The position numbers were made by a program, and so were the translations under genes. A DNA stretch of 50,769 bases from a virus (Duplodnaviria; Caudoviricetes): IMG/VR virus record IMGVR_UViG_3300011425_000005, positions 1-50,769 of that record; one strand, 5' to 3'. The notes under the pieces are model-generated. The model saw nothing but the letters and a program-made list of their open reading frames with translations, searched no databases and was not told where the DNA came from. Shown here one piece after another: positions 12,715 through 13,992 of the stretch (its first letter is position 1; every line of letters starts with the position of its first letter).

Positions 12715-13992
12715 ATGGCAAGTTTTTTAGGTGGATTAGGTAATGCATTGTTGGGTGGGATAATGGGAGGAGGCGGCTCTGGCGGAGGCGGGGGCGGAAT
12801 ATTAAGTTCTCTTTTTGGAGGAGGAGGTGGTGGTAGTAGCGGAGGAGCTGGGGGTGGATTAGGTTCACTTTTTGGTGGAGGAGGCGCCTCTGGTGGTACA
12901 AGTGCTGGAGGTGGATTCGGTGGAATCTTAAGAACTCTTGCTCCAATTGCTGGAACTGCTCTTGGAACTTATTTTGGTGGACCTGCTGGTGGAATGATAG
13001 GTGGAAATCTTGCTGGTGCACTTGGTGATTCTTTGTTTGGTGGCGGATCAAGTCAACAACAACCTCAGCAACAGGGATATGGTCCTCAACAATCCTATGG
13101 AAATCAATTTGGAACATCAATTGGAAATGCTTTAAACCAGGGGTTTAATCAATATCTTCCTCAACAATTGCAAGGTCAAAACTTTTCAGATATGGGAGGT
13201 TCTATTGGTGGTTATCTTGGTGGTCAATTTGGTCATCCAAATGCTGGGAGAGCAATTGGAAATCTTCTAAATCCATTTCTTCAGAATGCAATGCCTGAAA
13301 GCATGAGAGGCCAACAAATGGGTAATTTTGGAGGATATTTAGGAAGTCAAGCTGGCCAAAGAATGGATAATGCATTTCAAAGCAGAGGCATGAATCCTTA
13401 TCAAACTCCTAATTATGGTCAAAATCAATTGCCTGATTATTCACAAGGTAGTTATGGAAACATTCCTGAAGCACCACCTTTTGACTTATATGATCAAGGT
13501 GCCGGTGGATATGGAAGTATTCCAGAGGCTCCACCTTTAGGAAATATAAATAGCAGTAGTGGACGTGGTGGATATTATGGTTCAACCAATCGTTCTAATT
13601 CTTATCCAATGCAAGAGCCTACTGCTGGTAGGGGTGCATTGTTAAATGATATTAGAAATTTTAGAAGAGGGTCATCTGCTCAACCACAATCTGGTTACGG
13701 TAATATTCCAGAGGCTCCTCCTTTTGATTTAGGTAGTAATCCTTCTAGAAGCTCTGGTGGGTATGGAATTAGATCAGGTGTAAGCAGACCTTCAAATATA
13801 TTCTCTGAATTTAGAGAGAGAGCAGCTCAACCTGGAATGGGTCTAAGGCCAACTCAGACAAGACCATCAAGTGCATATCCACAAAGTGGAGGCGATAGTA
13901 TGATGGATCTATTGAGAAACAGACTTGGAGATATTAGAGGCGCTGTTGCACCTAATGAATATCCTAGGAATTATACCGTAATGGGAGTTTAA
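12715..13992 (+). CDS. Gly-rich putative ejection protein with Pro-rich repeats and WH2-like motifs
   Basis: Glycine-zipper N-half; three YG(N/S)IPEAPP(F/L) repeats; GRGALLNDIRNFRRG; IFSEFR...GLRPT; AGGAG SD. Confidence 0.65.
   Translation: MASFLGGLGNALLGGIMGGGGSGGGGGGILSSLFGGGGGGSSGGAGGGLGSLFGGGGASGGTSAGGGFGGILRTLAPIAGTALGTYFGGPAGGMIGGNLAGALGDSLFGGGSSQQQPQQQGYGPQQSYGNQFGTSIGNALNQGFNQYLPQQLQGQNFSDMGGSIGGYLGGQFGHPNAGRAIGNLLNPFLQNAMPESMRGQQMGNFGGYLGSQAGQRMDNAFQSRGMNPYQTPNYGQNQLPDYSQGSYGNIPEAPPFDLYDQGAGGYGSIPEAPPLGNINSSSGRGGYYGSTNRSNSYPMQEPTAGRGALLNDIRNFRRGSSAQPQSGYGNIPEAPPFDLGSNPSRSSGGYGIRSGVSRPSNIFSEFRERAAQPGMGLRPTQTRPSSAYPQSGGDSMMDLLRNRLGDIRGAVAPNEYPRNYTVMGV

Follow-up and report, generated by a model that had tools for sequence, protein, structure and literature searches.

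The locus considered here raises the question of what a podovirus could do with a protein that joins a Gly-rich, putatively membrane-inserting part to a long disordered tail of proline motifs and short amphipathic helices. The DNA analysed (the window) is the whole of a 50,769-bp IMG/VR virus record, with an estimated completeness of 91% and a G+C content of about 36%, and the gene in question (the target) is the following:

12715..13992, + strand: target gene, 425 aa (list of open reading frames (ORFs), translation and nine homologs)

A sequence-only reading of this DNA had described the product as a putative ejection protein ending in a RickA/WASP-like Pro-rich + WH2 + WH2 + C module, which would bind eukaryotic actin and suit a phage of an intracellular bacterium. 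The interpretation tentatively preferred here is that the target is a membrane-inserting podovirus ejection protein with a multivalent tail of short motifs, whose partner is likely to be a bacterial host protein and not eukaryotic actin. The target family would then be a variant of podoviral ejection proteins that has not been described so far.

The tail motifs carry most of this argument. The three YG(N/S)IPEAPP(F/L) repeats, the two WH2-like motifs (helix 1 and unit 2) and the C-terminal helix of the sequence-only reading are all recovered by a script and by translation, as follows:

13453-13482, + strand: first copy of the Pro motif, YGNIPEAPPF; weakly conserved (top-residue fraction 0.50)
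13510-13539, + strand: second copy, YGSIPEAPPL; Y266, P270, A272 and P273 invariant in 10/10 sequences
13627-13671, + strand: helix 1, GRGALLNDIRNFRRG, amphipathic, WASP/WIP-WH2-like, without LKKT; AlphaFold2 helix 304-316
13696-13725, + strand: third copy of the Pro motif, YGNIPEAPPF; P332 and P335 invariant, A334 nearly so
13792-13854, + strand: unit 2, SNIFSEFRERAAQPGMGLRPT, made of a short helix IFSEFRERA, a 10-residue linker and GLR(P/T); AlphaFold2 helix 362-370
13894-13947, + strand: C-terminal amphipathic helix, DSMMDLLRNRLGDIRGAV; AlphaFold2 helix 396-409

The protein itself ends in APNEYPRNYTVMGV. Alignment of 10 family members reveals that these elements form conservation islands separated by variable, indel-rich linkers. 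The mean top-residue fraction reaches 0.79 in repeat 2, 0.71 in repeat 3, 0.62 in unit 2 and 0.59 in helix 1; four of the five linkers give 0.35-0.44, and the remaining one (385-393) gives 0.56. In unit 2, G376 and L377 are invariant and R378 nearly invariant, and R306, E365, R369 and R383 also belong to the invariant or nearly invariant residues of the tail. The sequence-only reading had accepted that a lack of motif conservation in homologs, together with a lack of actin binding or of a confident complex, would undo it; the islands are conserved in the nine metagenomic homologs, weakly in the case of repeat 1. The three Pro-repeat copies share just 61-73% DNA identity over 56 nt, so that the peptide is kept under selection and does not result from a fresh duplication. 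The Pro repeats and their conservation clearly exceed chance. Furthermore, the number of motifs differs across relatives (two to five Pro motifs, one to two ALLxDIR helices and one to three helix+GLR units), a variation typical of linear motifs that act by avidity.

The AlphaFold2 model of the target, built from the 10-sequence family alignment, has a mean predicted local distance difference test score (pLDDT) of 52. Together with the translation and the composition, it divides the protein into the following parts:

12715..13086, + strand: N-terminal Gly-rich segment, aa 1-124, 43% Gly, with three SLFGGG-type motifs (translation, composition)
12913..13035, + strand: predicted helical hairpin, Gly-zipper-like, aa 67-86 and 90-107 (AlphaFold2 secondary structure, low pLDDT)
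13087..13401, + strand: conserved helical core, aa 125-229 (pLDDT 78-90 over aa 131-220; mean top-residue fraction 0.72)
13402..13989, + strand: disordered basic tail, aa 230-425, 196 aa (pLDDT 34-52, three short helices)

The core is the sole part that is confidently folded, and the three helices predicted within the disordered tail coincide exactly with the three helix motifs. All the motifs noted above lie within the tail, whose pI is 8.9-9.3. The hairpin is a candidate membrane-inserting element according to the model; the Gly-zipper Pfam matches found in relatives are weak, every one of them below cut-off. The target protein itself gives no Pfam family above cut-off. A fold search with the AlphaFold2 model returns no match at E <=0.001 in PDB or BFVD, and the exhaustive VIA-align comparison with 48,161 chains reaches a best Z of only 4.3. 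Two fold matches, baculovirus PP78/83 in BFVD (E 0.38, TM 0.10) and JMY in the ESM Atlas (TM 0.19), lie far under a meaningful level and were set aside.

The composition of the protein is unusual. It is rich in Gly, Gln, Asn, Ser, Tyr and Arg, with 22 Arg and 20 Tyr, contains many GYG, SYG and RGG elements and has no Lys, no Cys and no Trp. The replication genes of the same 36% G+C genome encode 8-14% Lys. Lys depletion extends to the whole superfamily, K/(K+R) being <=0.29 in 29 of the 31 listed members; candidate reasons are the avoidance of cross-linking, of proteolysis or of Lys modification, or an Arg-Tyr 'sticker' chemistry. In the N-terminal segment, Gln-rich spacers come after the SLFGGG-type motifs, an arrangement that presumably recalls FG/GLFG cohesive repeats.

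The position of the gene in a podovirus ejection module, implied by the sequence-only reading, was borne out by its adaptor, nozzle and phrog_4287-like neighbours. The neighbouring features are:

9922..10563, + strand: head-to-tail adaptor gene (Pfam PF24175 SU10_adaptor, 2e-17, over cut-off; phrog_2941 virion structural protein, 7.6e-18)
10563..12473, + strand: nozzle-like virion structural gene (phrog_3287, 8.7e-22)
12470..12703, + strand: 77-aa ORF just 5' of the target, with no Pfam/PHROG family match
12702..12706, + strand: Shine-Dalgarno AGGAG, 8 nt upstream of the target ATG (sequence itself)
13995..15410, + strand: Lys-rich 471-aa protein, the second of the module with a Gly-zipper (translation)
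15414..16268, + strand: ejection-protein-like gene (phrog_4287 'DNA ejection protein', 8.3e-7)

Three further large genes lie 3' of the phrog_4287-like gene. The order adaptor, nozzle, small ORF, target, Gly-rich gene and 282-aa ejection-like gene is kept in 6/6 related IMG/VR contigs, two of which, of 50.9 and 57.4 kb, are complete genomes bearing terminal repeats. An ORF of 77-89 aa stands just 5' of the target in 6/6 of these loci, and likewise in Caulobacter phage GB2A (gp066c), and an ORF of 281-290 aa takes the place of the 15414-16268 gene in 6/6. The target is thus found in the block downstream of the adaptor and nozzle and beside other ejection genes, as podovirus ejection proteins are, and from this position the name 'putative ejection protein' seems reasonable.

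Two likenesses relate the target to the T7 gp14-like ejection proteins of podoviruses: this place in the genome and the predicted transmembrane (TM)-like hairpin, along with a largely unfolded nature that would suit passage through the tail. Podoviral ejection proteins unfold then refold, and the gp14-like ones have TM helices, according to passages of PMC8954989. However, sequence and fold searches found no similarity between the target and the described ejection proteins, from which it also differs by its extreme Gly/Gln/Asn composition, its lack of Lys and its long tail of repeated linear motifs.

In the preferred interpretation, the target, largely unfolded and lysine-free, would pass the nozzle. 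In the manner of T7 gp14-like proteins, its Gly-zipper hairpin (aa 67-107) and its core would insert into the host envelope or assemble there, a step suggested by the predicted structure and the gene position. From this anchor, the 196-aa tail would extend as a multivalent array of six short linear motifs, i.e., three polyproline-type YGxIPEAPP motifs and three Arg-rich amphipathic helices. The latter could fold on binding the hydrophobic groove of a conserved partner, as the conservation islands, the variable copy number and the predicted helices lead one to think. This partner would most likely be a bacterial host protein met after ejection. The gene position, the conservation islands, the disorder with its three helices and the variable copy number are observed, whereas we infer the ejection, the insertion into the membrane and the side on which the tail comes to lie with respect to the envelope.

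Whether the tail is a WH2 module was then the main point to decide. In WH2 domains, an N-terminal amphipathic helix is followed by LKKV (legend of Fig. 3 of PMC9569871). A helix of this kind, with an LLxxI-type face, is present in helix 1 (GALLNDIR), and the pattern g-R-g-a-L-L-x-D-I-R of the target aligns with GRGALLDQIR of WASP and GRNALLSDI of WIP. In addition, as in WASP, N-WASP and WIP, the helix lies in a disordered region beside Pro-rich motifs. The likeness goes further in profile searches. When profile A3 of helix 1 (29 columns, six phage sequences) was searched against 177,635 distinct PDB sequences, four of the five matches at E <=10 were WH2 peptides (N-WASP, E 0.0012; WIP, 0.0057; WASP, 0.53; N-WASP, 1.4), reportedly crystallised with actin.

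Membership of the WH2 family, for which the sequence-only reading had named a scan with Pfam PF02205 as a check, did not hold. The gathering cut-off of this family is 23.1 bits; helix 1 obtains 20.9 bits (E 2.7e-4) and covers positions 1-15 of the 28 of the profile only. None of the 18 family proteins reaches the cut-off (best 21.1 bits), nor does any of five related virus records in a six-frame search. Sub-cut-off matches are found at E <=0.1 in 4/10 close homologs and at E <=1 in 6/10 further proteins. In two relatives, P0005 and P0043, the half of the profile that contains LKKV (positions 14/15-28) is weakly matched by MGLRP(T/A)QTR. The two profile halves fall on distinct elements, with about 55 residues between them. 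Of 14 control genomes of bacteria or archaea, six also give PF02205 matches at E <=1 per genome, none above cut-off: sub-threshold WH2 matches are common background.

The spacing of the motifs differs too. WH2 proper places LKK[TV] 4-7 residues past the helix, whereas helix 1 runs into N(F/Y)RR (N-F-R-R-G in the window) and the LRPT of unit 2 stands 10 residues past the last hydrophobic position of its helix. The caveats attached to the sequence-only reading, namely the lack of a clean LKKT in the first motif and the long linker in the second, agree with this. Regular expressions of our own, written after viewing the sequence and hence illustrative only, give no match with a linker of 4-8 residues between helix and LRPT; a linker of 4-12 is needed to find unit 2. 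In searches with profile A2, a 14-sequence profile of the helix+GLR unit, 0/5 matches to PDB sequences are WH2 or thymosin chains, and PF02205 lists only 2 of 14 isolated helix+GLR units at E <=10. Beta-thymosin (PF01290) matches neither the protein (E <=0.1) nor the 14 isolated units (E <=10). The tail alone finds no PDB sequence, thymosin chains included, and the whole-family profile finds a single chance match (E 0.46).

WASP- and RickA-type factors end in an acidic region whose conserved Trp binds Arp2/3, and they bear polyproline tracts of the profilin/SH3-binding type. The absence of an acidic-Trp tail, already recognised from the sequence, was confirmed, as the protein contains no Trp. 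As to proline runs, the protein has PEAPP (two consecutive Pro) three times, and its distant relatives P0015, P0043 and P0038 have PPPLPPR one to four times. The C-terminal helix, which had been counted as the C part of a WASP-type module, must be removed from it. Amphipathic helices of this type (LRDM..LM or MMDLLRN) are common to most superfamily members, and those without Pro or WH2-like motifs still end in ...LRDM..(L/M)M. The helix is thus an old phage feature and not a part of such a module.

It follows that, of the two WH2 motifs proposed, the first is WASP/WIP-WH2-like by both Pfam and the PDB profile, and the second finds no WH2 or thymosin chain. As a single query, helix 1 has a likeness that appears modestly significant (E 2.7e-4 with Pfam, 0.0012 with the PDB profile). 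However, this candidate was chosen by eye, for that very likeness, in a scan of very many proteins; an E of about 1e-3 is eroded by such a choice and would not survive correction. Judged by sequence, helix 1 looks like a WH2 helix, but the WH2 family does not include the module taken as a whole. The array of Pro motifs and short helices stands as a conserved feature, and the actin-binding interpretation is partly supported, through a sequence resemblance that concerns helix 1 only. This resemblance is best read as convergence on a binding mode, 'short amphipathic helix in a groove', and not as a true WH2.

Some distant relatives of the target strengthen the architectural resemblance to WASP-type factors. 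In P0015, P0043 and P0038, the PPPLPPR motif (one to four copies) is accompanied by two units of the form NP-(I/L/M)(D/E)E(M/L)..(R/K)F-linker-(G)LR.. and a third helix, LM(N/D)(D/E)I(K/R). P0017 has three helix+GLR units and P0022 carries VNDVMQRAGNLRPV. The PPPLPPR motif may be likened to Sos, and the P-helix-F-linker-LRxT units to thymosin. In locus L006, a full helix+GLR unit occupies the position of the ALLNDIRNFRR of the window, which makes helix 1 the positional equivalent of a helix+GLR unit. With such arrays in distant relatives, the resemblance is not trivial.

Several pathogens assemble actin by means of tandem-WH2/Pro-rich factors, e.g., VopL/VopF, BimA and RickA (parts of PMC9569871 and PMC5412564). 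The target shares with them a succession of Pro motifs and two to three short helix-plus-basic units on flexible linkers, a likeness that is clearest in P0015, P0017 and P0043. Unlike these factors, it has no dimerisation/VCD domain and no acidic/Trp Arp2/3-binding end, its units fail the WH2 profile tests, and it is a protein of a phage structural module instead of a secreted effector. Among the open-access papers searched, none was found to describe a WH2-type motif in a virion protein of a phage.

The nature of the host also bears on the identity of the partner. The nearest cultured relatives of the phage infect free-living Alphaproteobacteria (Caulobacter, Roseobacter, Pelagibacter). For example, the large terminase is nearest, among cultured phages, to those of Roseobacter phages CRP-901/CRP-902 (37%) and Pelagibacter phage HTVC027P (28%). 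Likewise, the nozzle-like gene has its best tblastn matches in Caulobacter phages GB2A/RW/RLK/KcrB, with 36.7% identity over 80% of the query; these are the 'Riverwalk' phages in passages of PMC11053796. The DNA is present in two freshwater-sediment runs and one soil run, and the sequencing runs listed with this DNA include no RNA run. The phage encodes an OmpA-like outer-membrane beta-barrel at 42252-43070 (- strand; PF13505, 31.5 bits, and PF01389, 27.5 bits, both above cut-off), from which a Gram-negative host is deduced. Neither a close relative of this gene nor, with the family profile, any match of the target family was found in 185,579 GTDB genomes. A Pfam scan of 46 of the 55 window ORFs of at least 100 aa (34 at E <=0.01 or stricter, two ORFs of 326-327 aa included) detected no eukaryote-association or actin-like domains. 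The host is taken to be Gram-negative and probably free-living. This context fails to support the phage of an intracellular bacterium imagined by the sequence-only reading, and the hosts of the relatives and the sediment and soil origin of the DNA argue against eukaryotic actin as the partner.

The possible partners can be ranked: a host protein comes first, followed by docking inside the phage, then equally by a bacterial actin-fold protein and by the absence of any discrete partner, and finally by eukaryotic actin. A role within the virion, which seems rather unlikely, would make the helices and Pro motifs docking or packaging signals towards the portal, the scaffold, the capsid interior, the DNA or the ejection proteins, or a zip for the ejectosome. 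In its favour, the C-terminal helix ends most superfamily members, including those devoid of Pro or WH2-like motifs, and the basic tail would adjoin DNA. Passages of PMC8954989 provide a precedent, T7 gp16, which cements gp15 by an extended 'molecular tape'. A YAxGG(F/H/M)V motif occurs as YASGGFV in the nozzle protein (nt 11055) and as YAHGGFV in the gene next to the target (nt 14997), and it lies close to the C-terminus of many superfamily relatives (P0020-P0038). It may be a docking motif shared among virion proteins, and its YAxGG(F/H)V forms in the nozzle, the next gene and relatives hint at a phage-internal docking code. However, the number of tail motifs varies among close relatives, which is unexpected for a contact of fixed stoichiometry, and PEAPP, GLRPT and LLxDIR are found in no other ORF of the 50,769-nt window. 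The tail could also have no discrete partner, its motifs being the stickers of a cohesive low-complexity (FG/GY/RGG-like) material that would fill the capsid or the tail channel as a gel-like plug or a condensate. The Gly-rich N-terminus with its SLFGGG motifs, the many GYG/SYG/RGG elements, the abundance of Tyr and Arg and the superfamily-wide scarcity of Lys would suit such a plug, which nevertheless seems improbable, since stickers rarely keep 10-residue motifs and an invariant GLR in fixed order at 40-50% identity. Helices lying on a membrane surface were set aside, their hydrophobic moments being only 0.32-0.41 and their mean hydrophobicity negative.

The remaining alternatives involve the actin fold, whose hydrophobic groove is a hot spot in prokaryotes too, being used by ParR on ParM and by arcadin-2 on crenactin through short terminal helices on flexible arms (excerpts of PMC5173319). 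The target could resemble these two systems in layout, by its short conserved helix on a flexible arm and its prokaryotic setting, and its docking in a groove would be hypothetical. That its tail takes hold of a bacterial protein with the actin fold (MreB, FtsA, ParM-like or the nucleotide-binding domain of DnaK), and would thereby tether the ejectosome or disturb the host cytoskeleton, is an improbable reading. The best PDB matches of the helix 1 profile are groove-binding WH2 helices, and the tandem helix units and Pro arms of relatives would make a good tether, but an MreB or FtsA ligand of this type is without known sequence precedent, and none of the scanned ORFs belongs to an actin-like family. 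Co-folding of the tail (aa 290-425, alignment A1) with MREB_ECOLI as a stand-in gave a score of 0.00 and a mark of 0.32, which speaks neither for nor against binding. Even less can be said for a genuine Pro-rich + WH2 + WH2 + C module that binds eukaryotic G-actin and belongs to a phage whose bacterial host is intracellular, and this original proposal is very improbable. It draws on the PF02205 match of helix 1 and the sub-cut-off matches of relatives, on the LKKV half recognised in P0005 and P0043, on the four WASP, N-WASP and WIP peptides among the five PDB profile matches and on the PPPLPPR and LRxT units of distant relatives; more speculatively, a protein without Lys would suit exposure to the ubiquitin system. 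Against it stand the failure of all family proteins at the Pfam cut-off with profile halves on separate elements, the N(F/Y)RR that follows helix 1, the long linker of unit 2 and its lack of any WH2 or thymosin match in PDB, the missing Trp and acidic tail, the free-living hosts of relatives, the sediment and soil origin of the DNA and the choice by eye among very many proteins. Moreover, an ejection protein would reach the bacterial envelope and not the eukaryotic cytosol.

It is quite unlikely that the tail acts as a groove-binding ligand of an actin-fold protein, with helix 1 and the helix+GLR units docking as WH2, ParR and arcadin-2 do. If this were true, the DNA of a podovirus would enter the cell accompanied by a multivalent module able to capture or nucleate the actin-like cytoskeleton of the host (MreB or ParM-type), and for phages of protist-associated bacteria the protein bound could be eukaryotic actin itself. 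It would be the first virion-borne module of a bacteriophage aimed at the actin family.

The preferred interpretation, a membrane-anchored ejection protein whose tail meets a bacterial host protein, has weaknesses of its own. The target matches no PHROG, and its ejection is deduced from gene order and from the weak PHROG matches of its neighbours. The hydrophobic moments of the three tail helices are moderate (0.32-0.41), and the C-terminal helix, being superfamily-wide, suits a role within the virion at least equally well. Helix 1 is closer to the WH2 helices of WASP and WIP than to anything else in PDB. In addition, distant relatives combine one to four PPPLPPR with two to three helix+GLR units, an architecture met elsewhere mostly in actin assembly factors, whether eukaryotic or effectors.

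Podoviral ejection proteins remain poorly understood, and little is known of their action once on the host side. The target, with a membrane anchor and a long disordered tail of linear motifs, has the architecture of a tether or hub-binder and not that of a channel wall. Should the tail bind a host protein, it would offer a peptide probe, already at hand, for a host factor that serves when the genome enters. With an actin-fold protein as the partner, phage entry would be linked to the bacterial or eukaryotic cytoskeleton, a link previously undescribed. If the resemblance is convergent, WH2-like helices would arise outside actin biology, and sub-threshold PF02205 matches should not be over-read.

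As for the distribution of the family, nine metagenomic homologs were found among 5.8 billion clusters, with 37-72% identity and E-values from 1.7e-159 to 1.9e-41. When 1.84 billion representatives were searched exhaustively with the family profile, 178 matched at E <=0.001, eight of them at E <=1e-30; about eight full-length cluster representatives of the target family are present in this set. Most of the 178 remote matches cover the Gly-zipper region only (profile positions about 45-115), and a smaller group adds the core. Megablast and tblastn searches of the target gene against 50,697 phage records, with the low-complexity filter on, returned no match, and a homolog was present in 0/3 genomes of cultured relatives searched. 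The loci of P0043 and P0015 were sought in IMG/VR and none was found. The 'longer' search with the tail yielded family members only (four proteins at E <=1), which is weak evidence. Four unrelated-looking proteins, P0018, P0019, P0073 and P0088, match the core of the family profile (E 1e-16 to 1e-5) through 4-6 tandem repeats of about 60 aa, APQGF.GDALGA.GG.VGGWIGGRFGN...GQ.IG...GGLAQRFLPF, and may represent a wider class of Gly-zipper repeats.

The 471-aa neighbour of the target (13995-15410) has a weak match to phrog_342 internal virion protein (E 0.0026), and its C-terminal domain resembles that of GB2A gp065c. Target profile A1 also touches the Gly-zipper of its ortholog in G001 and G002. 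This neighbour carries Lys runs, and the comparison also involves L008 10760-12502. GB2A gp065c resembles the target in coming after a nozzle and a small ORF and in having a Gly-rich TM-like stretch and Pro/Thr linkers. The two are nevertheless not homologous: profile A1 finds nothing in GB2A, and gp065c has neither WH2-like nor PEAPP motifs. In OR260089.1, gp065c is labelled 'tail length tape measure protein', which looks like a mis-annotation given the podovirus-type gene layout of that phage (SU10-type adaptor, nozzle-like genes).

Other features of the window concern distinct functions. A second OMP_b-brl candidate lies at 26193-26906 (+ strand; 17.1 bits, below cut-off). ARAGORN detected an unusual tRNA-like gene, whose 'anticodon (gt)' has only two bases, at 45258-45343 (+ strand), directly beside a tRNA-Asn (45346-45421), and a tRNA-Ser(tga) is found at 42145-42234 (- strand). 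An RNA ligase with a PHA02142 OB-fold domain is encoded at 39440-40540 (+ strand; 5.4e-40 and 6e-23). Finally, a replication/recombination module includes a RecT-like annealing protein (29450-30316, - strand), a DnaD-like initiator (24528-25550) and a VRR-NUC nuclease (23973-24341, - strand).

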